Notes: generated by a model from the sequence alone, not told the origin. 20,737 nucleotides of DNA from an uncultured virus (IMG/VR IMGVR_UViG_2671180842_000001) (IMGVR_UViG_2671180842_000001), one strand, 5' to 3'; shown: positions 2,173 to 20,737, counted from the first letter of the stretch. A program made the numbers and translations.

Positions 2173-3240
2173 TTGGGATTACCAAGTGCGATAATTGAGT
2201 TTCAAAGACGTTCAAGGACTGTTAAATTTAGAAGTCAAAAAGGAATTGTGGCTTTAATACTTAAAGATTCAACAGCTACAAAGAAATCTTATTCTATTGA
2301 TTTTTTAACAGATATAAACGAAGCTGAATTTACAAAAGAAAACTATGATTATATAAGGCTTGCATTTTTAGGAAAACCTAGCAAGGTTATTATTGAAGTT
2401 ATTAATGATTCAGCTGATGTTGAAAGGACTTTAGACGATGTTTTAAAAGCTTTAAAGGCGAATAAATTTAACTATTTAGCTATTCCTTGGATAAGTGAAG
2501 AAGCTGATAAAACTAAAATAGTCAACTGGATAAAGACAGCTAGAAGGGAAAAAGAGATATACAAAGCTGTGCTACCCAATATTGCAGATGCTAACGAGAA
2601 AGCAATTATAAATTTCGCAACAACAGGCATAAAAGTTGGGGAAAAATCTTATACGACAGCAGAATACACAGCTAGAATTGCAGGTATCTTAGCAGGTATA
2701 CCACTTTCAGAAAGTTGTACGTATTTTGTTTTAGATGAAGTTACAGAAATAGAACCAATCGAAAATCCTGATGAAACGATAAATAAAGGGGAGCTAATTT
2801 TAATAAATAATAATGGAATAAGGATAGCTAGGGGTGTGAACTCTTTAGTAACTTTAAGTAAAGAAGATACAGAAGACTTAAAGAAAATAAAAATAGTTGA
2901 AGCTATTGACATGATACAGGACGATATTCTTCAAACCTGGAATGAGAATTACGTTGGAAAAGTAACTAACAAATATGATAATAAAGTATTGTTTCTATCT
3001 GCTATAAACAATTATTTTAAAGAGTTACAGCGTGATGAAGTTCTTGATAATAGTCAAGAAGCTTATGCGCAGATAGATATAGAAGCGCATAAAAAATATC
3101 TGAAAGAAGCGGGAATTGATTATAGTGAAATGACTGAACAGCAAATAAAAGAAGCTAATACGGGTTCTTATGTTTTTATAGAAGGAAACATTACTGTTAC
3201 TGACGCCATGGAGGACTTGAAATTTAAAATATATATGTAA
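2173..3240 (+). CDS. Contractile tail sheath protein (XkdK-like, compact 355 aa)
   Basis: TTG start after AAGGAGG. 'MGLPSAIIEF', 'ARIAGILAG', 'IARGVNSL', 'KIKIVEAIDMIQDDI', 'DAMEDL' are typical of clostridial sheaths. Confidence 0.92.
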   Translation: MGLPSAIIEFQRRSRTVKFRSQKGIVALILKDSTATKKSYSIDFLTDINEAEFTKENYDYIRLAFLGKPSKVIIEVINDSADVERTLDDVLKALKANKFNYLAIPWISEEADKTKIVNWIKTARREKEIYKAVLPNIADANEKAIINFATTGIKVGEKSYTTAEYTARIAGILAGIPLSESCTYFVLDEVTEIEPIENPDETINKGELILINNNGIRIARGVNSLVTLSKEDTEDLKKIKIVEAIDMIQDDILQTWNENYVGKVTNKYDNKVLFLSAINNYFKELQRDEVLDNSQEAYAQIDIEAHKKYLKEAGIDYSEMTEQQIKEANTGSYVFIEGNITVTDAMEDLKFKIYM

Positions 3241-3253
3241 AGAAGGTGAGTAG

Positions 3254-3703
3254 ATGGGCAAGGAAAATGTCGTAGGAAGTAGTCAAATTTCCGGCACATG
3301 GGGAAAACTTTGGTGGGACGGAACTTTAATCGCTGAGGTGCTTAGCTTTGAAGCTAAAGTTACAGCAAATAGAGAAGAAGTTCAATTTGGAATGAGTAAA
3401 GATTCTAAAATAACATCACTAAGCGGTGAAGGAACTATAAAGCTTGGAAAAGTATATTCAAGAGGAAAGAAGAAATTGCTAGAAGCTTGGAAGAATGGAG
3501 AAGACCCACGGAGCACACTTACAAGTAAGGTAAAAGACCCTGGAACACCTGGAAAACAAGCAGAAACAGTCACAATTAACAACGTGTGGTTTAATGAACT
3601 AGCTTTATCACAGTTTGAAAAGGGCGGAAAAATCGAAGAAGAGCTAAGCTTTGGATTTACACCAAACGATTCAGACGTGATGGACGAAATAGACGAAATT
3701 TAA
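3254..3703 (+). CDS. Tail tube protein (XkdM-like)
   Basis: 149 aa following the sheath; 'ISGTWGKLWWDG', 'GEGTIKL', 'DP..GKQAETV', 'IEEELSFGF'. Confidence 0.88.
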   Translation: MGKENVVGSSQISGTWGKLWWDGTLIAEVLSFEAKVTANREEVQFGMSKDSKITSLSGEGTIKLGKVYSRGKKKLLEAWKNGEDPRSTLTSKVKDPGTPGKQAETVTINNVWFNELALSQFEKGGKIEEELSFGFTPNDSDVMDEIDEI

Positions 3704-4325: not shown

Positions 4326-6073
4326 AAGGCATATAGGTGCAGTTATATCTCTAAAAGACAATATGAGTGCGACCATGAGGGGAATTAGAAGAGAGCAAAA
4401 ACAATTTCAAAACGAGGTTAGACGGACACGTAACGAGATGCGCTCGGCAAGTAGAGAGCGTATGCGCATAAGGATGGATGCAACTCCTGCACACAGGACT
4501 ATACAAGATTTAAGGCGAAAACTTGCACCTCTTCGTACTAAACTTGTGAAAGCAGTTGTTATAAAAGATTTAGCGACTGAAAAGATAGAAAGAATAAAAT
4601 CGAACGTAAAATCTTTTGGAAGATTTATTGCAAGACCTGCTATAAAGCTTAAAGACGAAACGAAAGGAATGATTGATAAAATAAAAAATCGACTTACTAG
4701 TTTATCAACTATAGTTCCAATTGGTGCTGCGGTTGGTGCTGCGGGTATGGCTGTTAAAAGTGGTATGGAACTAGAACAACAACAAATAAGTATGCGTCAT
4801 TTTATGGGAGTTGGAAACAAGGGGAAATCTAGCAAAGAGCTTGACGGAATGAGCACAAACTATTTAAAAGATTTAAGAAATAATGCAAATGCGACACCAT
4901 TTGAAACTGGAGAAGTCATATCAGCGGGAACTCGTTCTTTGCAAATAGCGGGTGGAAATACAAAAGATGCTATGCAAATGGTTAAACTAGCAGAGGACAT
5001 GGCGGCACTAAATCCAGGCAAGACCGTTGGAGATGCTATGGAAGCACTTGCGGACATGAACATTGGAGAAATGGCAAGACTTACGGAGTTTGGAGTTAAG
5101 GCAAGCAGTACAGACGATCCAAAGGAAGTACAAAAGAAACTTGAAACAATGTATGCAGGAGGAGCAAATAAGCTTGCTGAAAGTGGTTCAGGGCTACTTT
5201 CTACGATAATGGGTAAGTTAAAGTCTAATATCGCAGATATTGGGCTTGGCATGTTAGAACCTCTTAAACCGGTTATGGCTGGTCTAATTGGATTTATAGA
5301 CCAGGCAAGCCCTAAGATACTAGAAGTATGTACAAAAATAACGAGTGGTATAGGGATGGCGATTGGATGGATACAGCAACAAATGCCAACTTTAGCTCCA
5401 ATTTTTCAAACAGCTTTTGGAGCTGTATCTTCGATTGTATCAACAGTTGTGCCGATAATCGGGCAAGTTATAAGTGCGTTAGCTCCGATTTTTATGGGAT
5501 TACTTTCTGTTGCATCGTCTGTTTTATCAGGAATTGCCTCTGCTGTCAAAACTGTAGCTCCTGTTGTAAGCACTTTGATTTCTGGGTTTTCGCCAGTTTT
5601 TTCAAATGTTGGAAGTGCTTTAAAATCTATGGGTAAAATTTTTAAAAATATTTTTGATAGTGTTATGAAAATAGTTAAAAAAGCGTCTGATTTCATAAAA
5701 CCATTGCTCAGTGGAATAATAGGTGCAACAAAAGGCATTAGTGATGGAGTTAGTTGGGTTGCTGGAAAACTGGCTGGAAATGCAACTGGAACGAAATATT
5801 GGTCGGGCGGACTTTCTGTCGTAGGTGAACATGGACCCGAACTTGTATCTATGCCGCGTGGTAGCAAGGTTTTTACAAATGCAGAAAGTAAGTCTATGAT
5901 TAATAAAAGTATTCCTAACTTACGACAAGTGCAAGGTGGGAATACAAATTACAATATAACAATTCCTAAAATCGCTGAAACAGTAATCGTAAGAGAAGAT
6001 GCTGACATTGAAAGAATAACATCAAGCTTAATAAAAAAAAATACAAATGGCGAAAATGGGCGGTGTTGTTTAA
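4318..6073 (+). CDS. Tape measure protein (about 585 aa); natural stop bypassed by an extra A in A9 run at 6033-6041
   Basis: Basic helical N-terminus, 'ANATPFETGEV' tape-measure motif, hydrophobic Ala/Val/Ser repeats and 'VGEHGPELV' C-terminal motif. With 8 A the frame ends ...KKIQMAKMGGVV-TAA(6071-6073), overlapping the next ATG (TAATG). Confidence 0.82.
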
Positions 6074-6711
6074 TGGAAATGTGGCTTAGACAATCGAATG
6101 ATGCTTTTAGATTCCCAATACTTCCGACCTCTTTTGAAATAAGTGGAAGCATAAATACAAGCACAACAAATGTACTAAAGCTCGGAGAAGTAATTGTCTG
6201 TGGTGGTACAGGACTTAGAACAACAGAGATAAATAGTTTTTTTCCAAGTAAACAATATCATTTTTGCAATTATAAAGATTTTCCACAACCATATGATTGT
6301 GTAAATAAATTGAAAAAGTGGATGGAGCAGGGGTTAATTTTAAGGTATATAATAACTGAAACTGATGTGAATATGGAGGTTATTATTGAAAGCTTCAAAC
6401 ATGGCAAGCAGGATGGTACAAACGATGTTTACTTTACATTGAGTTTAAAAGAATATAAAAGAATACAGATACCTAAAGTAAGCATTAATAATGATGAAAG
6501 GTTATCTTCTGTAAAAGATGTGCCAATCACAAAAGGTTTTGAAACTAAAAAACAAAGAACTCATAAGGTAGGTAAAGGTGACAGTCTTTGGAGTTTGGCA
6601 AAAAAATATTATGGTAATGGGGATTTGTGGAAGAAGATTTATGATGCAAATAAAAAATTAATTAAAAATCCAGATATTATAAAAGATGGTTGGGTATTGG
6701 TAATTCCATAG
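6073..6711 (+). CDS. LysM-domain tail tube initiator protein (XkdP-like)
   Basis: MEMWLRQSNDAFRFPILP... with C-terminal LysM 'HKVGKGDSLWSLAKKYYGNGDLWKKIYDANK..IKNPDII..GWVLVIP'. Confidence 0.87.
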   Translation: MEMWLRQSNDAFRFPILPTSFEISGSINTSTTNVLKLGEVIVCGGTGLRTTEINSFFPSKQYHFCNYKDFPQPYDCVNKLKKWMEQGLILRYIITETDVNMEVIIESFKHGKQDGTNDVYFTLSLKEYKRIQIPKVSINNDERLSSVKDVPITKGFETKKQRTHKVGKGDSLWSLAKKYYGNGDLWKKIYDANKKLIKNPDIIKDGWVLVIP

Positions 6712-6725
6712 GCTGGAGGTGATTT

Positions 6726-8471
6726 ATAATTAACAATATAAAGTTAAAAGTACACATAAAAAATGGCAATATCTATGATATAACTGATATAGTAGAAAAA
6801 GTTACATGGTCAGGTGATTATAAGTCACCTTCCAGAACATTAGAATTTTCTATAGTACAATCCTCTTTTGATGTGAATTTTCAACAGATAGATATACCTA
6901 TAGCTAGTACAGTTTGTTTTTATGTGGATGATAAAGAACTCTATAGAGGAATGATAATTAATAGGTCTAAAGACTCTAGTAATAATAGTATTAGTTTTGT
7001 ATCTAAAGATATGGGATTCTTGTTAACGCAGAGTGAAGTGTCATATAACTTTAAAGATAAATTGGTTGAAGATATTGCAAAACAGGTATTTAATGACAAT
7101 AAACTTGCAATTGGAAACATACCTAAGACTAATGTTAAATATACTAAGATGTTTATTGGTGTAACTGGTTATGACACTATAATGAGTGCATATACAGAAG
7201 CAAGTAAAACTACAAAGAAAAAGTATATGATAGAAGCCAATTTAGACAAGTTTAATGTTATTGAAAAAGGAATTGTTACACTAAATGTCATGTTTGAAGA
7301 AGGTTCTAATCTTATAAATACAAGCTTTTCAGAGAGCATGGAGAATGTAAAAAACAAGGTCTTAGTAGTAGACCAGTACGGCAACAAGATAAGTGAAAAG
7401 GTCAATGATGAGATTTTTAAGGACGTTGGAATAATAATGCAAAAGGTTATACAGCAACAAGAAAATCAAACAATAGATATAGATAGCGAGTTTAAGGGAA
7501 TAGAGCAGACTTGCAATCTGAAAGGATATGGTGACGTAAGTTGCATAACTGGTAGAGGTGTAAAAGTTAAGGACAGCTATACAGGTCTTACAGGGCTATT
7601 TTATATAGACACAGATAAACATAATTGGGACAGTAATGGAAATTATGAAATAGACTTAGATTTAAATTTTCAAAATATTATGGATGAAAAGACAGCAGGA
7701 CAAGACGAGCAAAAAGAAGAAAGTTCTGATTTGAATGGAGAAGGTACGCTAAATGGAAGAGAAGTAAAAGCAGAATTTACAGCTTATTATCCGTCTAATA
7801 ACCCTATGGAGGGTGGTTATTATCAAGCCATGGATGGTAAAAGACTTGTACCTTCAAACAATACTTGTGCTGCACCTAGTAAACTTAAATTTAAAACAAA
7901 AATTCAAGCAAAATGTCCTGGAACTAAAATTGATGGTAAAACTTATACAGTAACAGACAGAGGAGGAGCGATTGGCTTAAAAAATGGAGTGTATAGAATA
8001 GATATATTAATGTCTAGTGAAAAAGAATGTAATGATTTTGGAAGAAGAAAAGGAACAATAATAATTGGAGATGGCACAGGCTATACAAATACAACAGGAA
8101 AAGCTAAAGAATTGATAAGTATAGCAAAAAGCAAGCTAGGCTGTAAGTATGTTTGGGGAGCTACTGGTCCAAATACTTTTGATTGTAGTGGATTCACTCA
8201 ATGGTGTTACAAAAAGATAGGTATAAACATTCCTAGAGTATCAAGAGGCCAAGGAAAAGCAGGTAAAGCAGTAAGTAAAGGAAGTTTACAACCAGGAGAT
8301 TTAGTTTTCTTTTCTAGCAAAGGAGCAAATGGAACAATAGACCATGTTGGTATGTTTATTGGAAATGGAGAATTTATTCATTCTCCGCATACTGGTGATG
8401 TTGTAAAAATAAGTAAGTTAAGTGGTAGCTATTACACTAAAAATTATGTAACAGCTAGAAGATATTTATAA
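6726..8471 (+). CDS. Baseplate hub/tail-tip protein (XkdQ-like) with 3D-like domain and C-terminal NlpC/P60 peptidase
   Basis: Frame is open from 6723 with 'YDITDIVEKVTWSGDYKSPSRTLEF' upstream of the listed GTG6873; RBS GGAGGTG at 6715-6721. 3D-like 'FTAYYP..VTDRGGAI..RIDIL'; NlpC/P60 'YVWGATGPNTFDCSG..PGDLVFF..HVGMFIG..FIHS'. Start codon uncertain (ATA6726 or ATT6729). Confidence 0.85.
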   Translation: MINNIKLKVHIKNGNIYDITDIVEKVTWSGDYKSPSRTLEFSIVQSSFDVNFQQIDIPIASTVCFYVDDKELYRGMIINRSKDSSNNSISFVSKDMGFLLTQSEVSYNFKDKLVEDIAKQVFNDNKLAIGNIPKTNVKYTKMFIGVTGYDTIMSAYTEASKTTKKKYMIEANLDKFNVIEKGIVTLNVMFEEGSNLINTSFSESMENVKNKVLVVDQYGNKISEKVNDEIFKDVGIIMQKVIQQQENQTIDIDSEFKGIEQTCNLKGYGDVSCITGRGVKVKDSYTGLTGLFYIDTDKHNWDSNGNYEIDLDLNFQNIMDEKTAGQDEQKEESSDLNGEGTLNGREVKAEFTAYYPSNNPMEGGYYQAMDGKRLVPSNNTCAAPSKLKFKTKIQAKCPGTKIDGKTYTVTDRGGAIGLKNGVYRIDILMSSEKECNDFGRRKGTIIIGDGTGYTNTTGKAKELISIAKSKLGCKYVWGATGPNTFDCSGFTQWCYKKIGINIPRVSRGQGKAGKAVSKGSLQPGDLVFFSSKGANGTIDHVGMFIGNGEFIHSPHTGDVVKISKLSGSYYTKNYVTARRYL

Positions 8472-8486
8472 AAAGGTGGTGATATA

Positions 8487-8813
8487 GTGTCTGATCCAAT
8501 AAATGAATTTATAGGAATAATAAGAGAGGAAGGAAAACATTACAATGAACCTTCTTTTTTTGTTGGAAAAATTAAAAGCAAATTACCAGATTTAAAAATA
8601 GAGATAAATAACATCGTATTAGAAAAAGAAGATATTTTGATAGATAGTTGGATGCTTGATAGACAGATAGAATCATTTGATACAGAAACAAATCAAGAAC
8701 ATCAACATGAAGTAAAAAATCCATTTATAGATACTTTTGAATCTGGAGACATAGTAATAATGTTCAAAATAGGTGATAAATTTGCTGTTGTAAGTAAGTT
8801 GGTGAGTTTATAA
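8487..8813 (+). CDS. Baseplate spike-like protein (XkdR/DUF2577-like)
   Basis: 108 aa after hub; 'GKIKSKLPDLKI', 'HQHEV', 'GDIV...KFAVVSK'. Confidence 0.75.
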   Translation: MSDPINEFIGIIREEGKHYNEPSFFVGKIKSKLPDLKIEINNIVLEKEDILIDSWMLDRQIESFDTETNQEHQHEVKNPFIDTFESGDIVIMFKIGDKFAVVSKLVSL

Positions 8814-9241
8814 TGAGTACAATATTTCCTTTTATAGGTGTCCCAGAAGATTATATCTTGCCTAAAACGGAAGAATTGCCAATCTTTCGTGAAGTGGCCT
8901 GGGATTTTGAAAAAGATGAACCTATTTTAGAAAATGGAGATTTTAAGATTATTGAAGGCAATGAAGCTATCAAAATTTGGGTGTATAAATGCATCAAAAC
9001 AAATAGATATGAGCATGAAATTTATAGCTGGGGCTATGGAACTGAATTATCTGAACTTATTGGACAGAAATATAGTAAAGGACTTACAGAAAGTGAAGCT
9101 AGTAGATATATAAAAGAGGCTTTATTAGTTAATCAATATATATTAGATGTCAATATCAAGGATACAAAATTTACAGATGATTTATTAAGTGTAAATATAG
9201 AAATTTCGACGATTTATGGGGAGGTAGAAGTTAATGTATAG
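8813..9241 (+). CDS. Baseplate wedge/sheath initiator (XkdS/DUF2634-like)
   Basis: 'REVAWDF', 'EAIKIWVYKCIKTNRY..IYSWGYGTEL', 'STIYG'; TAATG coupling with the previous gene. Confidence 0.82.
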   Translation: MSTIFPFIGVPEDYILPKTEELPIFREVAWDFEKDEPILENGDFKIIEGNEAIKIWVYKCIKTNRYEHEIYSWGYGTELSELIGQKYSKGLTESEASRYIKEALLVNQYILDVNIKDTKFTDDLLSVNIEISTIYGEVEVNV

Positions 9242-10286
9242 TAGTCAAACTTATGATGTCATTAAAAATAGAACTCTATCAAATATAGATTTAGATATCT
9301 ATAAGGGTGAGGGTTCTTTTTTAAGTGATATGGTATCTCCAATCAGTACAGAACTCGCAAAATTCTATATAGAACTTTCATATCTTCATAAAAAAGCTTT
9401 TATTGAAGATAATTTTGATGATTTTCTTGATAAACGGGTAAATGAATTTGGAGTATACAGAAAACTAGGAACAGAAGCTACAGGAGAAGTGGTATTCGAG
9501 GGAAAAGCTGGAACAGTTATACCAAATGGAACAATTATATCTTACAATGAGTTATTATTCGTAGTAATTAAAGATATAGTAATTAGTTCGGAAATCGAAC
9601 AAAATACAAGCCCCGTACAGGCTTTAGAAATTGGAATTAGATATAATATACCTGCAAGTACTGAATTTAAGCTACAAGACGAAATAAACGGTATAAGTAA
9701 AATATATAATAATTTAGACTTTAAAGGTGGTACAGAAATAGAAACAGACGAAGAATTAAAAGAGAGATTCTATAAAATCCAAAGAAATCAAGCTACAAGT
9801 GGAAATAAAGCTCACTATGAAGAATGGGCTTTAGAAGTTGAAGGAGTATATAACGCTAAAATCTATCCGAGATGGGATGGTCCAGGGACGGTAAAGGTAT
9901 TAATATTTGGAGAAAATAATCAAGCTGTTGACACAGAAGTAATTGAAAGATGCAAAGAACATATTGAGGAAGAAATGCCAATAGGTCCTGCGTTAACCGT
10001 TTTAACTCCAAGCGTTTTAGATATAAGTATAAGTGCATCTATAAAATTAGAAGCGGGATATACATTAGATTTTGTAAAAGAAAGCTTCTTAGAGAGTATT
10101 AATAGTTATTTAATAAATGTTAATAAAGAAATAATTTACACTAAAGTAAGTGCAATACTTGCGTCTATTGAGGGTATACATGACTTTAGCAATTTACTGT
10201 TAAATAACAAAGCTGAAAATATAGTATTTGAAGAAGACAAAGTTCCAAGTGTTACGACCCTAGAGTTTAGTGAGGTGGTAGTTTAA
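9234..10286 (+). CDS. Baseplate J/gp47-family protein (XkdT-like)
   Basis: 350 aa; 'GGTEIETDEELKER', 'SGNKAHYEEWALEVEGV', 'PRWDGPGTVKV'. Confidence 0.92.
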   Translation: MYSSQTYDVIKNRTLSNIDLDIYKGEGSFLSDMVSPISTELAKFYIELSYLHKKAFIEDNFDDFLDKRVNEFGVYRKLGTEATGEVVFEGKAGTVIPNGTIISYNELLFVVIKDIVISSEIEQNTSPVQALEIGIRYNIPASTEFKLQDEINGISKIYNNLDFKGGTEIETDEELKERFYKIQRNQATSGNKAHYEEWALEVEGVYNAKIYPRWDGPGTVKVLIFGENNQAVDTEVIERCKEHIEEEMPIGPALTVLTPSVLDISISASIKLEAGYTLDFVKESFLESINSYLINVNKEIIYTKVSAILASIEGIHDFSNLLLNNKAENIVFEEDKVPSVTTLEFSEVVV

Positions 10287-14206: not shown

Positions 14207-14464
14207 ATGGATAATTTAATAAGTTTTATACCCGAGCAGTTGCTAATTTTAGTAGCTGCTCTCTCTATTATAGGTAAAGGTTGCAAAAAATATAAACAAT
14301 TAGACAATAAATACATTCCAATTATATTACTTGTGTTGGGAATCGGATTTTCTATTTGGATGCTAGGGTTTAGTCCTAACGCAGTACTGCAAGGTGTAAT
14401 TTGTTGGGGTATATCAATAGGTATAAATCAAACTTACAAACAACTAAAGGAGGAAAATAAATAA
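14207..14464 (+). CDS. Phage holin
   Basis: 85 aa with hydrophobic helices, 'NKYIPIILLVLGI', 'NQTYKQ' basic tail; coupled to the endolysin. Confidence 0.88.
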   Translation: MDNLISFIPEQLLILVAALSIIGKGCKKYKQLDNKYIPIILLVLGIGFSIWMLGFSPNAVLQGVICWGISIGINQTYKQLKEENK

Positions 14465-15261
14465 TGAAAATAGCAATAGTACCAGGACACACTTTAAGTG
14501 GAAAAGGAACAGGAGCAACTGGGTATATAGATGAAGGAAAAGAAAATAGAATACTAACTGATTTAATAGTAAAATGGTTGAAACAAGGTGGAGCTACTGT
14601 ATATACTGGAAAGGTAGATAAGTCCAATAACTATTTAGCAGAACAATGTCAAATAGCCAATAGGCAAAATGTAGATGTGGCCATACAAATACATTTTAAT
14701 GCAGACCATACAACCTTGAACAAAATGGGTACAGAGACAATTTACAAAACTAATAATGGCAAAGTGTATGCAGATAGGGTAAATACTAAATTAGCAACTG
14801 TATTCAAAAACAGAGGTGCAAAATCGGATGTAAGAGGTCTTTACTGGCTTAGTCATACAAAAGCTCCAGCAATATTAATAGAAGTGTGCTTCGTAGATAG
14901 CAAAGCAGATACAGATTATTATATCAGACATAAAGACATAGTTGCTAAATTAATAGCAGAAGGTATATTAAATAAAAATATAAATAATGAGGGAGTTAAA
15001 CAGATGTACAAACATACAATTGTTTATGATGGAGAAGTTGATAAGATACTTGCGAATGTGCTTAGTTGGGGCTATAGTCCAAGCAAAGTTTTAGTTTGTG
15101 ATATAAAAGATTACGTACCAGGTCAGACGGAAAATTTATATGTTGTAGGAGGTGGCGCATGTGAAAAGATAAGTTCTATTACTAAAGAAAAATTTATTAT
15201 GATAAAAGGTAATGATAGATTTGATACACTTTATAAAGCATTGGATTTTATTAATAGATAG
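14464..15261 (+). CDS. Endolysin, N-acetylmuramoyl-L-alanine amidase (Amidase_3) with CD27L-like cell-wall-binding domain
   Basis: Zn ligands in 'PGH', 'E..EN', 'QIHFNA' and catalytic 'ILIEVCFVD'. The C-terminal 'MYKHTIVYDGEVDK...GNDRFDTLYKALDFINR' resembles the CD27L C-terminal domain as I recall it. Confidence 0.93.
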   Translation: MKIAIVPGHTLSGKGTGATGYIDEGKENRILTDLIVKWLKQGGATVYTGKVDKSNNYLAEQCQIANRQNVDVAIQIHFNADHTTLNKMGTETIYKTNNGKVYADRVNTKLATVFKNRGAKSDVRGLYWLSHTKAPAILIEVCFVDSKADTDYYIRHKDIVAKLIAEGILNKNINNEGVKQMYKHTIVYDGEVDKILANVLSWGYSPSKVLVCDIKDYVPGQTENLYVVGGGACEKISSITKEKFIMIKGNDRFDTLYKALDFINR

Positions 15262-15292
15262 ATAAAAGTTATCAACTAGAAGTGGTTGTTTG

Positions 15293-15321
15293 TTGTGATA
15301 ACTCTATTATTGTAATATAAT
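15293..15321 (+). promoter_or_regulatory. Sigma-A-like promoter of moron gene
   Basis: TTGTGA(15293-15298)-17 nt-TATAAT(15316-15321). Confidence 0.6.
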
Positions 15322-15356
15322 GTAAATATATTATTGTGATAATGGAGGATTTATGT

Positions 15357-15704
15357 ATGGATGCATTGGTTTATGAGAGATTTGTAAGAGCAGCTTTTAG
15401 TATTAAACTTAATAACTTGATTAATAGAAGCGAAGATTTAGGTGGATTGGCTGAAGCTGATATCTTTAGAGCAGCAAATAATTTACATGAATTAAATGAG
15501 ATAAAAATAGGTACTGGGTATGCTATTGCAATATTTAATAATGAGATATTAGAGTCTTGTAATGTTTCTGATAATGATAGCAATAGAATGATTGAACTAT
15601 TTGATAGAAGTTTAATTGCAACTTCTAGGGAGGAAATATTGGATATTATAAGAGAATATGAAACTTATAGAGGACGATATCTTACTTTTAATTGGAAGAG
15701 ATAG
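15357..15704 (+). CDS. Hypothetical accessory (moron) protein, 115 aa
   Basis: GGAGG at 15344-15348 lies 8 nt before ATG15357. Helical acidic protein with no recognised motif. Confidence 0.7.
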   Translation: MDALVYERFVRAAFSIKLNNLINRSEDLGGLAEADIFRAANNLHELNEIKIGTGYAIAIFNNEILESCNVSDNDSNRMIELFDRSLIATSREEILDIIREYETYRGRYLTFNWKR

Positions 15705-15717
15705 AATGTTTAAGTTA

Positions 15718-15752
15718 GGAAGTAGTAATTATAGTTAGTTATTACTTTCTTT
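15718..15752 (+). terminator. Possible terminator hairpin
   Basis: GGAAGTAGTAATTA-tagt-TAGTTATTACTTTC (14 bp with G-U pairs) followed by TTTC. Confidence 0.45.
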
Positions 15753-15869
15753 CACATATTTTTATTATTTCAATAAGATTATTTCCAAATAATAATTTAT
15801 TCAATGATAATAAGTAGAAAATAAAATTTTGAATCAATATAAAATTTAATGAAATGAGGTAGTAAAATC

Positions 15870-16388
15870 ATGGATAAAAAAATAGACATAGCGAAGTTTA
15901 TAGTAAATAGAATTGATTACTATATTGAAAAATCAGATAATAAAGCTAGTTTTTTACTATTATTAAATAGCGCAATTATAGGTTTTTTATTTTCAGGGAA
16001 GGAAAAAATAATGAATCACTTAAGTATAAGTAATATCAGATGTTTAGAGATGCTATTTTACATTGTTATATTATGTATATTTGTTATTTCAATTTATTTT
16101 TCGATTATGGTTTTAAAGCCAAGGAATTCTAAAATAGAAAATGAATATAAATCTATTTTTTATTATAAAGAGATAGCATCTTTAAATAATGAACAGTACA
16201 AAGAAGCATTTGAAAATGCATTTAAAGACGAAGAAAACTTGATTAATGATGCACTTGTTCAAATAAAAGAATTATCTTTAATCTGTGATAAGAAAATGTA
16301 TAATGTAAAAAAGTCAGTAGAAGCTTTTATTTTAGGTGGTATTATATTGTTTATATATATACTTGTAGTAGTTTTTAATGCTATTTAG
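15870..16388 (+). CDS. Pycsar transmembrane effector-like protein (PycTM/DUF5706 family)
   Basis: 172 aa. 'YIEKSDNKASFLL' + TM1, TM2 ending 'VLKPR', 'SIFYYKEIA', 'QIKELSLICDKKM' + C-terminal TM3: the motif order of this family. RBS GAGGT. Confidence 0.8.
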   Translation: MDKKIDIAKFIVNRIDYYIEKSDNKASFLLLLNSAIIGFLFSGKEKIMNHLSISNIRCLEMLFYIVILCIFVISIYFSIMVLKPRNSKIENEYKSIFYYKEIASLNNEQYKEAFENAFKDEENLINDALVQIKELSLICDKKMYNVKKSVEAFILGGIILFIYILVVVFNAI

Positions 16389-16405
16389 AAAATGTTTTAT
16401 TTGGT

Positions 16406-16450
16406 TAGTATTCCTCTATGAAGATAGAATCAAATCATAGAAGAATACTA
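16406..16450. terminator. Inverted repeat between convergent genes (putative bidirectional terminator)
   Basis: TAGTATTCCTCTATGA-13 nt-TCATAGAAGAATACTA, 15/16 complementary. Confidence 0.6.
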
Positions 16451-16451
16451 T

Positions 16452-18020
16452 TTACATATTTGTAGATTCTTGTAATTGATTTTCATTTAATTTTTTAAAT
16501 GCTAGTTTTAAAGTTTCTTTAAAATCAGGTACTGTGTTTTCATTAAAATCTTCAAGTTCATCCTCTCCTATCCATGCAAGTTCATTATGTTTTGATGTGG
16601 GTTCAAATTTAGAAATATCATAATCATTTATTATTTCTGCGAGAGTTATAATGCCTTTGTGTAAACCATCACTTTTTTTAACTTGATAAATTGCTAGAGG
16701 TATAGGTTGGCAATCATCTTTTCTTGTGCAATCAGTAATAGGTTCAATGTTTATATTAAAATCTTTTTCATATTCATCTTTAATAGTATTTATAATTGAA
16801 GTTTCTAGACTTGCCTTAGCACAACCAAATTCCCATTTACTCGCATTATTATTTCTATTATCACTTCTTTTCGCAATTAATATTTTTGAAGTTGATTTAT
16901 TATAACAAACCGCAACACAGTGTAATTCCATTAAATCTACTTTTATATAGTCTTTATCTATTGTATTTTTATCATAACTGGGGTTTGTTTTAGAAATTAC
17001 GTCACCTATTTTTTCAATCTTATCACTAAGGTTTCTGTCTATAAGTATTTTATCCAAAGCCTTGTCTACAGAATTAAACATAAAAGAATCAATTAGTAAT
17101 TTACTTTCTCCTTTTTTATTAAAAAAATATTCTCGAACCAATTCATTTTCTTCTATTTCATCAAAAGAAAAACTATCATCAAATTCTATATCATTATTTT
17201 TTCCTTTATTATGATACCAAATGATAGGGTATAGTTTATCTTTCCAGATACCCTTTAATTTTTTATATGTAATTATATGTAATTTAGATAAAATATCAGT
17301 TTTTCTTGATAATATATAAGCTAGTTCAAAACTAAGAACAAGTCTTTCTGGGCATGTTTGCTTTGATATTCTGAAACCAGCATCAATATCATTTCCTAAG
17401 AACTCAAATATTTTATAATTATTGGATAAATCGTACATAGCAGAAATATTTTCATATTGTTCATTATTTTCTAAAGCATTAAAATTAGGATTTCTTGATA
17501 CTATAGCAATCCAGGCCGCTCCTTTTAATGAAATAATATTTTGAAGTTTCATTAAGTATTTTTCAGATTCAGAAAATCCTTCTAGTGTAGAGAATATATT
17601 ACCACTTTTTATATCTTTAGCAGTGCTTGTTAAAATATCAAAGATTATATCTATGTATTTATAAATTTCATCATAATTTTTTAGTACGATAATGAAAATT
17701 ACCTCATCACCAAGAACTCTCCAAAGTTGTGCTTTAAGGTTTTCATAAACTCTATATTGTAACTTACGAATTATATGTGATAATACCTTAGCCCATCCGC
17801 TATAATTTATATTTTTATATAATGATGAATTAGCTATATCAAAAGAAAAGAACAAAATCACTTCTGGATGATTAGGTTCTTTTTCTTTTTCATAAATATC
17901 AGTATTAATATTTTCTTGAAGTTTTTCCTTATACTTTTTAAGATTAAAAGCGTTTTCGTTTTTAGCTGAATTATGAACATTATTTACATTTTGAGTTTTA
18001 TATTCTTTATCATCTACCAT
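16452..18020 (-). CDS. Divergent class III nucleotidyl cyclase-like domain fused to C-terminal Nudix-like domain
   Basis: Numbering from the 528-aa ORF: 'LFFSFD67IANSS', 'WRVLGD111EVIF', 'FLGNDID219AGFR223', 'LVLSFE', 'KLKG'; then 'HCVAVC..KILIAKRS..KWEFGC..KDEYEKDF..HNELAWI'. Start is ATG18020 (overlaps the peptidase stop) or ATG18038. Confidence 0.7.
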   Translation of the reverse strand: MVDDKEYKTQNVNNVHNSAKNENAFNLKKYKEKLQENINTDIYEKEKEPNHPEVILFFSFDIANSSLYKNINYSGWAKVLSHIIRKLQYRVYENLKAQLWRVLGDEVIFIIVLKNYDEIYKYIDIIFDILTSTAKDIKSGNIFSTLEGFSESEKYLMKLQNIISLKGAAWIAIVSRNPNFNALENNEQYENISAMYDLSNNYKIFEFLGNDIDAGFRISKQTCPERLVLSFELAYILSRKTDILSKLHIITYKKLKGIWKDKLYPIIWYHNKGKNNDIEFDDSFSFDEIEENELVREYFFNKKGESKLLIDSFMFNSVDKALDKILIDRNLSDKIEKIGDVISKTNPSYDKNTIDKDYIKVDLMELHCVAVCYNKSTSKILIAKRSDNRNNNASKWEFGCAKASLETSIINTIKDEYEKDFNINIEPITDCTRKDDCQPIPLAIYQVKKSDGLHKGIITLAEIINDYDISKFEPTSKHNELAWIGEDELEDFNENTVPDFKETLKLAFKKLNENQLQESTNM

Positions 18021-18535
18021 TGTAAATATCCTAACCATTTCCCTCTATTAGATGCTGCATAAGAGGAAACATTAAAGTATTCTGCAATTTTTGAAGTGTC
18101 GACCTTATTACCTACTGTGTTTTCATCCATAATTCTTTTATATTCATGTTTAGGCATCAACAAGGCTGCTGCAAATTCATTGGATTGATACTCCTTATTG
18201 GTATTGCCACTTCTAAAATACTGATTTCCATCTTGACTATTCCATAGTTCATCATCAATGCCATAACCCATGTGTAAAAATAAATGTCCAAGTTCATGAG
18301 CAATGGTAAAATTCTTTCTGGTATCTGGTTGATAAGGAGATACCACTATTTCAAATGAATCATCAACTTTTCTAATAAATCCATCAGAGTATCCACTTAA
18401 AGAACTATCTTCTATTACCTTGCCTCCTAAAGCATCAACAACTTGATTTATATTTACTATTGGAATTTGGATTTTGTATGTTTGGATAATATCTTGGGTT
18501 ATATCATTAATTAGCTCTCTGATTTTGAAATCCAT
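18014..18535 (-). CDS. ImmA/IrrE-family Zn metallopeptidase (Peptidase_M78/DUF955), no HTH domain
   Basis: 'RKNFTIAHELGHLFLH' (HExxH) and 'EYQSNEFAAALLMP'; RBS AAGGATGTG. Confidence 0.9.
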   Translation of the reverse strand: MDFKIRELINDITQDIIQTYKIQIPIVNINQVVDALGGKVIEDSSLSGYSDGFIRKVDDSFEIVVSPYQPDTRKNFTIAHELGHLFLHMGYGIDDELWNSQDGNQYFRSGNTNKEYQSNEFAAALLMPKHEYKRIMDENTVGNKVDTSKIAEYFNVSSYAASNRGKWLGYLQW

Positions 18536-19023
18536 AAAATCACATCCTTATATAATATTTTATTTAAATAATTATTTATTATAATATTCATTATATCAAA
18601 AACTATTTTTTTTGGTACATTTAATATTAATTATTTTCATTAACCTTTTGTATTATACAATATAATTATACCATATAAAAACTGTTTTTTGTCGAATGTA
18701 TGTTTGAAAAAATAAAAATTAGTAAATTATCTTAAAAATAATTAGATATACTTTGGAAGCAATAAGAATATTAACAATAAGATAAATCGTTGAAATACCA
18801 ACATGTGTTAAATAATAACAATAAACAAATAATAAAATTTTAGATTTCAGAATATGAAAGAACCAAAAAACGATTAACTAGTAATCTTAATTAAATTCAT
18901 TTAGTTGATGTTAAAGTATGAAAACTATAGTAGAAGTTGTAATAATAAAACGAACGAAAATTATCATACTAAAACATAATACATGCTATAATTGTATTAG
19001 ATAAATGCTTGAATATATACCAA

Positions 19024-19055
19024 AAGTACTCTTTTTATAAGAGTGCTTATTTTTT
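19024..19055 (+). terminator. Intrinsic terminator
   Basis: AAGTACTCTT-tttat-AAGAGTGCTT followed by ATTTTTT. Confidence 0.65.
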
Positions 19056-19205
19056 GAAATTCATCAACATATAAACTATCAAGAACATTACTCAACACAC
19101 CTTAAAATTGATTTAAATTCTTTTTCATACACAAAGTTATATGATATAATAAAAAAGTAAATATGTAACCCCAACACATCTTTACTAAGTCAAACATTAT
19201 TATAT

Positions 19206-19236
19206 AGAGCATTCTTCATTATGGAGAGTGCTTTTT
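19206..19236. terminator. Intrinsic terminator-like hairpin (possibly bidirectional)
   Basis: AGAGCATTCTTCA-tta-TGGAGAGTGCTTT then TT; abuts the stop codon of the minus-strand 62-aa gene. Confidence 0.6.
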
Positions 19237-19424
19237 CATTTCTTTGAATAATCATGTTGATTATTTATAATATTTTCATTTAATTTATCTTTATCTATCA
19301 AATTTAATGCACAATTAATACAAATGTTAGTTTTCATATGACTTTTCTTATGAAAAGTAATATACTTATTATCATCTTTATTTATTCCTTTATTACAGTA
19401 ATCACATAATATAGTCTTAGTCAT
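19236..19424 (-). CDS. Small putative zinc-binding protein (CxxC...CxxC)
   Basis: 62 aa with 'CDYC' and 'CINC'; RBS AAAGGA upstream of ATG. Confidence 0.65.
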   Translation of the reverse strand: MTKTILCDYCNKGINKDDNKYITFHKKSHMKTNICINCALNLIDKDKLNENIINNQHDYSKK

Positions 19425-19683
19425 ATTTTTATTCCTTTCATTTTATATTTTCTATAATTAAGTTTAACATATTTAGTATATACCTATGTATATATATATT
19501 TAAAACAATGTTTTTTATTGCAATATAGAATATATTGTATAAATAAAAAATATGAAGAATAGATATTTGATAATTGTAAAATTATGTTATAATTAAAATG
19601 CAAGAATAATCTTGTGGAACTACAATCTAAGAGTGGAGCTTCATTTTCTACATTCCATCCCTTAAAAGGAAGGAGGTGGAGAA

Positions 19684-19827
19684 ATGAGCGAATTTTTACT
19701 AGGAGTGTTAGCTAGTTTAACAGCTAGCTTTATTACATATATTATTTCCAGAAAAGTAAAAAGCCACTCTGGCAGGAGTGACTTTGAGCTTGATGTAAAA
19801 ATCAAGTTTAATAAAAAACGACATTAA
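19684..19827 (+). CDS. Type I toxin-antitoxin toxin, 47 aa membrane peptide (resembles C. difficile prophage toxins such as CD0977.1/CD2889)
   Basis: MSEFLLGVLASLTASFITYIISRKVKSHSGRSDFELDVKIKFNKKRH*: N-terminal TM helix and Lys-rich tail. Strong RBS AAGGAGGTG; extended -10 TGTTATAAT at 19585-19593. Below the ORF-track cutoff. Confidence 0.85.
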   Translation: MSEFLLGVLASLTASFITYIISRKVKSHSGRSDFELDVKIKFNKKRH

Positions 19828-19899
19828 TATTTAGTTAATGAAACTTCACTCTAGGCTAATAGATTGTAGTTTCTTTTTTTGTTTTTGATACGAATTTAC
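19752..19899 (-). ncRNA. Antisense antitoxin RNA of the type I TA module (approximate ends)
   Basis: Minus-strand TATAAT at 19911-19906. Minus-strand terminator AAAGTCACTC-ctgcca-GAGTGGCTTT-TTACTTTT (19785-19752) lies inside the toxin CDS; convergent overlap with the toxin 3' end. Confidence 0.72.
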
Positions 19900-20029
19900 A
19901 TCTTTATTATATCGCATTTTGAGAAAAAATAAAACTATGAATATTAGAAATATATTTTATTTTATCTCTAAGTATATATATTATTAGCCACCTAAAAAAC
20001 TTTCACAAAAACAAAAAGAGTATATGTTT

Positions 20030-20125
20030 TTGATAACTGGATGATATAACTTATAACTCATTTTACAATTCTTAGTTCATATATATTTATGCCACTAAAT
20101 TTCTCTAGTTTTGCCGATTTAGTTT
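20030..20125 (-). promoter_or_regulatory. Degenerate c-di-GMP-I (GEMM) riboswitch-like element
   Basis: Minus strand reads AAACTAAATCGGCAAAACTAGAGAAATTTAGTGGCATAAATATATATGAACTAAG...ATATCATCCAGTTATC. The GGCAAA/GAAA-tetraloop stem is intact; the downstream consensus positions are eroded. Confidence 0.65.
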
Positions 20126-20140
20126 TATTCTACAACTAAA

Positions 20141-20169
20141 ATAATACAATAGAATTAGTTATTATTCAA
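20141..20169 (-). promoter_or_regulatory. Sigma-A-like promoter driving the riboswitch-like leader
   Basis: TTGAAT(20169-20164)-17 nt-TATTAT(20146-20141), just upstream of the aptamer. Confidence 0.6.
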
Positions 20170-20353
20170 CAAGATTGTTTGAAAATTTAATAAATTTATA
20201 GATATGAACATTATTTTACACTTGAAAAAACAGACTAAATACGTAGAATATATGGAAAAATTTACCTGTGGTTTTTGTGATAAAAAGCTCATATTATTAA
20301 TTTAAGTTAGATAAATTTGAAGAAGTGACATAAATTGAAAGAAGGAATATATT

Positions 20354-20737
20354 ATGTTGAATAAAAAACTACCAGATGCAGAATTAAAAATTATGAAATA
20401 CATATGGAATACTGGTTATAAAACTGTAATATCAAAAGATGTTGCAGATGAAATAGAAAAAACATATGGTTGGAAGCATACAACTACAATTACACTTTTA
20501 GCTAGATTAACCAAAAAAGGTTTTTTAATATCGCAGAGAATTGGGAAACATGTACACTATACAGTACTAGTAAAAGAAAGAGAATATCTTAAATTAGAAG
20601 GCAAAAGAATTTTTGGAGGTTTACATAACAATCCTTTATCAGAACTAATTACAAAATTACATGATAAAGAAGAAATAACTGAAGAAAAAATAATGGAAAT
20701 AGCAGATTGGATAAAAAGCTGGAAAGATGAAGATTAA
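20354..20737 (+). CDS. BlaI/MecI/CopY-family transcriptional repressor
   Basis: 'LPDAELKIMKYIW', 'WKHTTTITLLARLTKKGFL' winged helix; RBS GAAGGA; complete, with stop at 20735-20737. Confidence 0.9.
   Translation: MLNKKLPDAELKIMKYIWNTGYKTVISKDVADEIEKTYGWKHTTTITLLARLTKKGFLISQRIGKHVHYTVLVKEREYLKLEGKRIFGGLHNNPLSELITKLHDKEEITEEKIMEIADWIKSWKDED

Follow-up and report, generated by a model that had tools for sequence, protein, structure and literature searches.

Introduction

Pycsar systems encode a class III cyclase-fold enzyme (PycC), which makes cCMP or cUMP, beside a PycTM or PycTIR effector. In characterised systems the nucleotide activates PycTM, as stated in the text of a preprint (10.64898/2026.08.12.744502). 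The same text describes a Pycsar-2 subclade in which the cyclase bears a bihelical domain at its N terminus and an AGS-C sensor at its C terminus and is paired with transmembrane (TM) effectors only. According to parts of PMC12657218 and PMC13640721, Panoptes (OptS/OptE) and PanDA (PanS/PanE) each join a small cyclase, constitutively active, to a 2TM effector. Here we analyse positions 15870 to 18535 of IMGVR_UViG_2671180842_000001, a stretch of 20,737 nucleotides (nt) from an uncultured virus (the window). Three genes lie there, encoding a PycTM-family membrane effector, a 528-residue fusion of a cyclase-fold domain and a degenerate Nudix-fold (pseudo-Nudix) domain, and an ImmA/IrrE-type M78 zinc metallopeptidase. 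Genes of these three families make up a conserved cassette whose members travel together from genome to genome, and the trio is apparently a new, undescribed three-gene Pycsar-like signalling system.

The trio shares with Pycsar the adjacency of cyclase and PycTM genes, a patchy and mobile distribution, and a predicted logic in which a cyclic mononucleotide would act on a membrane effector to abort infection. It differs in that its cyclase carries a helical linker and a pseudo-Nudix domain, and in that the M78 peptidase is an obligatory third gene. Of the published designs, Pycsar-2 comes closest, going by the preprint's text: in both, a cyclase with a helical extension at its N terminus and a putative sensor at its C terminus is paired exclusively with 3TM-family effectors. 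The C-terminal domain of the trio's cyclase, however, has a Nudix fold and is not AGS-C, and that text (figures and supplementary table aside) mentions neither Nudix nor an M78 peptidase. Panoptes and PanDA also resemble the trio in joining a small nucleotide synthase to a small membrane effector, and they offer a possible other logic for it, in which loss of the signal would trigger death. Their descriptions, as far as these parts go, set them apart by their synthases (mCpol and DAC, against a class III cyclase fold here) and by an S-2TM-beta effector with a beta-barrel, against an all-helical effector here; they include neither a peptidase nor a Nudix domain.

The two additional parts of the trio have counterparts elsewhere. 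Lau and colleagues reportedly described, in 2022, the CapH/CapP regulators of CBASS and other defence operons. As with CapP, an M78 peptidase with an intact HExxH motif heads a putative cyclic-nucleotide defence operon here, and capP is its best PADLOC model. In contrast to CapH/CapP, the trio's peptidase has no conserved adjacent helix-turn-helix repressor (CapH) and is translationally coupled to the cyclase gene. Non-catalytic Nudix sensor domains are found in the NrtR regulators and in NUDT9-H of TRPM2, where the fold binds ligand after loss of the catalytic box; the contexts there are a transcription factor and an ion channel, unlike the trio. With Nudix hydrolases the trio's domain shares the fold but not the conserved catalytic glutamates of the box. 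The literature that we searched on Pycsar, Nudix, DUF5706 and phiCD27 held no description of the trio. This agrees with an earlier note made by a model from the window's sequence alone (the sequence-only reading), which knew of no system with such a layout, and both the PADLOC PycC models and the Pfam AGS-C family miss the protein family.

The three genes form a conserved cassette

The features of the locus are as follows.

15870-16388, plus strand: PycTM-family membrane effector, 172 residues (Pfam PF18967, PADLOC PycTM, all-helical model)
16406-16450, no strand: inverted repeat or hairpin, like a bidirectional terminator (15 of 16 bases complementary, 13-nt loop)
16452-18038, minus strand: cyclase/pseudo-Nudix fusion, 528 residues from the first ATG (open reading frame; AlphaFold model with a predicted local distance difference test score, pLDDT, of 90.1)
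17196-17876, minus strand: class III nucleotide cyclase-fold domain, residues 55-281 (VIA, Foldseek, conservation)
16938-17195, minus strand: helical linker, residues 282-367, ending in a low-confidence loop at about residues 351-370 (secondary structure of the model, pLDDT blocks)
16479-16937, minus strand: domain of Nudix fold whose Nudix box is degenerate, residues 368-520 (VIA, family profile, conservation)
18014-18535, minus strand: ImmA/IrrE-type M78 zinc metallopeptidase, 173 residues, first gene of the operon (Pfam PF06114, PADLOC capP)
18284-18298, minus strand: HELGH motif of the M78 peptidase

Profile searches, a repeat scan and structural models recovered every element of the sequence-only reading where it had been placed. 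Degenerate-pattern scans yielded 58 loci in species-representative genomes and 31 in viral contigs, 24 of the viral loci being identical to the window. The peptidase gene was found directly upstream of the cyclase gene by tblastn in 84 of the 89 loci, and in 60 of 65 when those identical to the window are left out; of the other five, three begin at a contig end and two are very distantly related. Downstream open reading frames (ORFs) were listed for 66 loci, and 62 were scanned with PADLOC, leaving out L042, L043 and L086, which have no ORF before the contig end, and L060, which equals the window. A PycTM/2TM-family gene lies directly downstream of the cyclase gene in 53 of these 62 loci (E 1e-20 to 1e-39). 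Of these effectors, 51 are full-length and share the strand of the cyclase gene; the L030 effector is a fragment and the L089 effector lies on the opposite strand, giving 52 on the same strand in all. The proposal of the sequence-only reading that the cyclase-Nudix and PycTM genes belong together is borne out by this neighbourhood survey.

In the 43 complete co-directional trios, the gap between peptidase and cyclase genes runs from -37 to +6 nt and that between cyclase and effector genes from -41 to +17 nt. The 101 upstream ORFs (at least 45 residues) fall into 85 clusters without a recurrent CapH/ImmR-like partner; the largest cluster, of five members, begins like a serine recombinase when judged by eye. 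Since no upstream gene recurs, the trio is the unit. The hosts are mostly gut anaerobes of several phyla, and prophages and viral contigs also carry the cassette. Among 399 sampled genomes of the class, three carried the cyclase-Nudix family, one of them in two copies. The finding of the same three families side by side in dozens of unrelated genomes shows that their adjacency is more than chance.

The effector and cyclase trees have most subclades in common. In the effector tree the window falls with L041 and L087 in a six-row clade (Shimodaira-Hasegawa-like approximate likelihood ratio test, 99), and in the cyclase tree it stands at the base of a large clade. These placements fit co-inheritance from a deep branch. 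An effector swap or chimera in the window was also considered and is not demonstrated, as approximately unbiased tests reject neither alternative placement (p 0.20 and p 0.52).

The fusion protein joins a class III cyclase fold to a degenerate Nudix fold

Searches with the 528-residue protein by itself returned no Pfam family at E <= 0.1 and nothing usable from the PDB; NCBIfam gave a weak Nudix hint, and the PADLOC candidate PDC-S07, a gene of ~390 bp in the survey tables of PMC11514479, matched residues 373-439. Its family has 457 matches among the scored candidates of the 90% clusters. An exhaustive HMMER search of the 50%-identity library found 1057, 553 and 192 representatives at E <= 1e-3, 1e-10 and 1e-30, and full-length members among the matches listed are mostly 440-540 residues long. 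It was the family profile and the structural model that resolved the domains, the single-sequence searches having given nothing usable. The AlphaFold model and all conservation counts for this protein are based on a 106-sequence alignment. The model has a pLDDT of 90.1 and a predicted template modelling score of 0.83, with pLDDT below 60 in the N-terminal tail to about residue 30 and at 61-73 in the loop of residues 351-370.

Residues 55-281 superimpose on the class III cyclases CyaB (3r5g; VIA Z 16.9, root-mean-square deviation 2.6 A, 189 residues aligned) and CyaC (1wc1; Z 16.5), and Foldseek likewise placed them on class III adenylyl/guanylyl cyclases (E 1.2e-9). Residues 368-520 match Nudix proteins (3f6a, Z 15.8; 1k2e, Z 15.7; MutT2, Z 15.4), and the helical residues 282-367 between them gave no fold match. 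The N-terminal domain thus models as a cyclase fold, and the cyclase-like/Nudix fusion named in the sequence-only reading is recovered with both of its halves.

Three cyclase motifs are near-invariant: FFSFD (D67), WR/KxxGDE (D111, E112) and GxDIDxGFR (D219, R223). D67 is present in 104 of the 106 sequences, E112 in 105, and D111, D219 and R223 in all 106, and position 107 is R or K in 106 of 106; D67 and D111 had been singled out from the sequence beforehand. We take these motifs to correspond to features of class III cyclases, namely the pair of metal-binding aspartates, the basic residue that contacts the base, and the Asn/Arg helix. To judge from these residues, the cyclase domain keeps the class III catalytic core.

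The Nudix domain gave a different picture. Compared with the PDB by sequence, the family profile matched MutT 5x1x at E 3.3e-6, and its MutT/NudG/MutT2-like matches span E 3.3e-6 to 2.4e-5. We mapped the positions of the Nudix box (consensus GX5EX7REUXEEXGU) through the alignment with MutT. Of the 106 sequences, 35 have E at position 413, 18 have R at 421 and 31 have E at 422; at the remaining REx2EE positions, 33 have E at 425 and 63 have D at 426. The window protein has A407, T413, D421, E422, K425, D426 and N428 in its box. The residues that are conserved in this domain (H373, C374, C378, R391, W402, F404, G405, C406 and Y423) lie outside the catalytic triad. Because the catalytic glutamates of the box are not conserved, a sensor or regulatory domain is favoured over a signal eraser; the sequence-only reading had allowed for either role, and only the sensor half of its proposal is favoured. 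The domain is probably a non-catalytic, ligand-binding module. Four of the conserved residues form a His/Cys cluster, H373, C374, C378 and C406 (HCxxxC ... GC), kept in 83-99 of the 106 homologues, which could be a metal or redox site.

The effector and the peptidase

The effector matched the Pfam PycTM family PF18967 at E 3e-12 (47.3 bits, cut-off 27.2) and the PADLOC PycTM model PDLC02364 at E 2.9e-31, which confirms the PycTM/DUF5706-type identity read from its motifs. It has both family invariants, K25 and K142, and AlphaFold models it as all-helical (pLDDT 91.4). PADLOC's CBASS '2TM' effector models are homologous to the PycTM family; a search of the PycTM model against the PDB gave nothing at E <= 0.001. 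A hydropathy scan found two strong hydrophobic spans, residues 51-85 and 146-172, and a third, weaker one is read from the sequence at about residues 26-43. The weak third span makes the earlier description of a 3-TM protein plausible.

The peptidase matched Peptidase_M78 (PF06114) at E 2.2e-18 and, as its best PADLOC model, capP at E 3.6e-25, over positions 5-149 of the 242-position profile. H80, E81 and H84 of the HELGH motif are invariant in 41 peptidase homologues, in accord with the HExxH peptidase of the sequence-only reading. The stop codon of the peptidase gene and the conserved 'MV' start of the fusion gene overlap as ATGGTAG, and this overlap recurs across loci. Translation of the fusion protein likely starts in this overlap, at M7 (nt 18020). 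The two proteins are not found fused: none of 264 family proteins (excluding the 'longer' length class) matches the peptidase. With no CapH-like repressor partner, the peptidase is unlikely to be a transcriptional switch in the manner of CapP and more likely to have a post-translational target, and for the same reason its most plausible substrate is the fusion protein itself.

The convergent layout of the window is derived

The two arms of the inverted repeat, 16406-16421 and 16435-16450, are 16 nt each, are 94% complementary and are separated by 13 nt. The repeat sits exactly between the stop codons of the effector and fusion genes. The hairpin has a folding energy of -17.2 kcal/mol (z -3.1) on one strand and -20.3 kcal/mol (z -5.6) on the other, and 0 of 200 shuffles gave one as stable; a scan for G+C-rich terminators missed it. 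The convergence of the genes through a 16-bp inverted repeat, as first noticed in the sequence, is therefore found again in its arms, its hairpin and its position.

The effector gene is on the opposite strand only in the window's lineage and in L089. The L089 cyclase falls inside a clade with support of 100 together with two co-directional loci, and the window lies outside that clade, so the two inversions look independent; the adjacency was kept in both. The usual layout is one co-directional, translationally coupled three-gene operon, and the convergent layout of the window is a rare derived form of it. We suggest that the effector gene was inverted in the window's phage lineage and would be transcribed separately, toward a shared hairpin terminator, in a system that otherwise looks intact.

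Phage context and expression

The window is low in G+C content, and its region of interest is 99-100% identical to the Clostridioides difficile temperate phages phiC2, phiCD27, phiCDHM19, CDKM9 and phiCD508. This identity marks the window as a phiC2/phiCD27/phiCDHM19-type C. difficile prophage. The gene order is holin, Amidase_3 endolysin, orf122, PycTM-family gene, 528-residue fusion gene, M78 peptidase gene, spacer, a 62-residue ORF and a BlaI-type regulator. Two of the neighbours are needed below.

14464-15261, plus strand: Amidase_3 endolysin (gene order from ORFs, Pfam and PADLOC)
15336-15704, plus strand: orf122, a small helical protein (possible lineage-specific accessory; membership of the cassette uncertain)

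In public phage records the three genes sit between the endolysin and integrase genes and are annotated as hypothetical, 'DUF5706 domain-containing', 'putative Nudix hydrolase' and 'metallo-protease'. This places the trio in the lysogenic-conversion region of a temperate C. difficile phage. In L023, L027 and L087, as in the window, the cassette is found downstream of a match to an endolysin-like amidase. Five named C. difficile phages, with differing endolysins, share the 528-residue protein at 100% identity, and among 50,697 phage records only these five distinct named C. difficile phages have the cassette.

In RNA-library contigs from three studies, all three genes were covered at very uneven depth; these are assembled contigs, which give neither strand nor true level and in which DNA carry-over is possible. 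The contigs run from about nt 15350 through PycTM. In X9, depth was 0 over 15200-15343, the 3' end of the amidase gene, ~4400 over orf122-PycTM from nt 15350 and ~7100 over the cyclase gene, and the peptidase gene reached 10,000-45,000. In X11, it was ~80-180 over the effector gene and most of the cyclase gene and 5600-9600 over the peptidase gene. The X9 pattern fits transcription of the cassette in lysogens with the lysis genes silent. The raw RNA reads of X21 covered only the region from about nt 18900 onward, and that strain is without the cassette. In two of the RNA studies, short, very deep contigs (up to ~45,000 mean word depth, far higher than elsewhere in the operon) cover 18080-18534, the 5' half of the peptidase gene, and several of them end in adapter sequence. 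This deep coverage could represent a stable 5' fragment or an attenuated transcript.

Proposed function and alternatives

We propose that the trio is probably a three-gene Pycsar-like cyclic-nucleotide abortive-infection system directed against other phages. On infection by another phage, the cyclase would make a cyclic mononucleotide, which would activate the PycTM membrane effector; the membrane would then collapse, infection would be aborted and the lysogen population would be protected. The pseudo-Nudix domain would bind nucleotides and serve for regulation or sensing, either keeping the cyclase inactive or detecting a cue of infection. The peptidase would switch the cyclase fusion post-translationally; its site could be the variable N-terminal tail of the fusion, for example, or the flexible loop of residues 351-370. 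A more specific version, which we put forward only tentatively, has the catalytically dead Nudix domain monitor the nucleotide pool and license a very diverged cyclase, with the M78 peptidase arming or disarming the fusion by cleavage. As the nearest sequence relatives of the pseudo-Nudix domain are MutT, NudG and MutT2, candidate ligands in this version would be a phage-modified pyrimidine (deoxy)nucleoside triphosphate or an ADP-ribose-type ligand.

Several observations weigh against this proposal. None of the 31 family members in alignment A1 matched a PADLOC PycC model at E <= 1; in PADLOC, PDC-S07 was the sole match of all 31, and 13 PycC models were matched by each of two control PycC proteins, from L099 and L100. 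An hhalign comparison of the family with the two PycC proteins gave a probability of 0.29%, using a shallow two-sequence profile. The link to Pycsar consequently rests on the fold and on the shared effector family, and of the non-canonical Pycsar-like system that the sequence-only reading had envisaged, the cyclase fold and the adjacent PycTM family stand and a match to PycC sequence models does not. Nine loci have no downstream PycTM gene (L002, L005, L012, L015, L037, L040, L056, L058 and L088); their neighbours include housekeeping genes, and L040 has a sigma factor after a truncated cyclase. A distant peptidase and cyclase-like pair in Leptospira phage LE1 is likewise without a PycTM neighbour and has no room for a Nudix domain. 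Since the effector gene of the window is convergent and separately transcribed, its co-regulation with the other two is not guaranteed, and promoter-like sites showed no excess in the window (40, against 40.2 in shuffles). The RNA evidence carries the limits given above. As for Pycsar-2, the 25 families that were listed at E <= 1 for the 31 members do not include AGS_C (PF18134), and hhalign of the family against six AGS-C domains from CD-NTases gave a probability of 0.24%.

Four other explanations were weighed. In the first, the system would be of a guard type: a constitutively made nucleotide would keep PycTM off, and its removal by a phage, through a sponge or phosphodiesterase (an anti-Pycsar enzyme, for instance), would release the toxic effector. 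The Panoptes and PanDA pairs, as described in parts of PMC12657218 and PMC13640721, provide a precedent; the cassette appears, from the RNA-library contigs, to be expressed in uninfected lysogens, and the PycTM family is related to the CBASS '2TM' effectors. On the other hand, the nucleotide activates PycTM in characterised Pycsar, according to the preprint's text (10.64898/2026.08.12.744502), and the Panoptes effector is described as S-2TM-beta with a beta-barrel, unlike the all-helical effector here. A pseudo-Nudix domain and a dedicated peptidase also suggest gated rather than constitutive synthesis, and we regard the guard arrangement as unlikely.

The second explanation keeps the abortive-infection system and makes the Nudix domain an active hydrolase that would degrade the cyclic nucleotide or its nucleoside triphosphate precursor, preventing self-activation. 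The MutT/NudG/MutT2-like profile match, the retention of E422 and D426 in the window protein and the match of 31 of 31 members to PDC-S07, a Nudix-type defence candidate, speak for it. Against this, the glutamates of the box and its D426 position are unconserved among the homologues (35, 31, 33 and 63 of 106 for positions 413, 422, 425 and 426), the box arginine is R in only 18, and what is conserved lies outside the catalytic triad. An active hydrolase is, on these counts, quite unlikely.

Prophage housekeeping is the third. The peptidase and cyclase would control the lysis-lysogeny decision or the timing of lysis, and PycTM would be an auxiliary holin-like protein. ImmA-type peptidases are classic anti-repressors of mobile elements, the cassette lies between the endolysin gene and the regulator and integrase genes, and the LE1 pair stands beside a CI repressor, with its peptidase-like gene annotated as 'immunity region protein'. 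Yet the trio has many different neighbours in many taxa and no conserved repressor partner. The X9 depth over orf122-PycTM, with none over the 3' end of the amidase gene, argues that PycTM is not co-expressed with lysis, and the presence of the cassette in five distinct named C. difficile phages among so many records makes it accessory. A housekeeping role is thus very unlikely.

Finally, chance adjacency of two unrelated morons, a stand-alone PycTM-like gene abutting a separate peptidase and cyclase-Nudix pair (an alternative raised in the sequence-only reading), might be read from the convergent genes, the terminator-like hairpin between them and the nine of 62 loci without an effector, but it is extremely improbable and effectively excluded by a synteny kept in 53 of 62 loci, an adjacency that survives the second inversion in L089, and cyclase and effector trees that share subclades.

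If the proposed abortive-infection system is real, it adds a missed branch to cyclic-nucleotide immunity, that of a large family whose cyclase domain is unrecognised by Pfam-A and PADLOC-DB v2.0.0 and is revealed by structure alone. Two new kinds of regulator would join the Pycsar scheme, an ImmA peptidase lacking a repressor and the pseudo-Nudix domain, and the trio would offer a tractable case for how Pycsar-type cyclases switch on, the main open question for Pycsar. Were the tentative licensing model also true, a Nudix-licensed cyclase with its peptidase would be a protease-gated, metabolite-sensing second-messenger system and a new class of immune sensor, and a prophage could silence its own suicide module during induction. 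Since the cassette is found in well-studied C. difficile temperate phages, it may shape superinfection immunity and the outcome of phage therapy.

Related loci and neighbouring genes

In two of the loci without PycTM, L005 (6555-7709) and L037 (6554-7708), a 384-residue polytopic membrane protein with no Pfam or PADLOC family takes the place of the effector and may be an alternative effector. A third, the viral contig L088, has a second M78 peptidase (6451-6936, E 1.4e-13) followed by a phage integrase (7030-8172) instead of PycTM. The pair in Leptospira phage LE1 (L101, 84-1799) lies beside the CI repressor gene and consists of the 174-residue 'immunity region protein' and a 394-residue protein that matches cyclase residues 105-274 at 27% identity. 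Judging by this phage, peptidase and cyclase may form a two-gene core with roles beyond PycTM signalling. In the genome with two copies of the cyclase-Nudix gene (G346, contig C1), the copies, at 665536-666939 and 683587-684990, are ~18 kb apart and have equal scores.

Among the 89 loci, orf122 is confined to the 24 that are identical to the window, that is, to the C. difficile phage lineage. Pfam, PADLOC and NCBIfam gave no match for it, and the Atlas offered no usable lead. The GGAGG that precedes an ATG at 15357 suggests that its true start is seven codons downstream of the GTG. A promoter-like site, TTGTGA-17-TATAAT, lies at 15293-15321, just before the start of the RNA contigs at about 15350. 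Rfam had no family at its gathering score within the window and one chance-level match at E <= 1 in 15200-20400.

Between holin and endolysin, phiC2 (L090) has an inserted gene annotated as AbiF (2826-3689), which the window is without; this insertion indicates that these phages stack different putative abortive-infection genes around the lysis module. Beyond the peptidase gene, the spacer of ~700 bp has 18-20% G+C. On its far side, ~700 bp upstream of the peptidase gene, lies the 62-residue Cys-rich ORF (19236-19424, minus strand), zinc-ribbon-like with two CxxC pairs. It is kept in phiC2 (p43) and phiCDHM19 (gp45), is not part of the cassette of other genomes, and reached high depth in the RNA-library contigs (about 3000 in X11).

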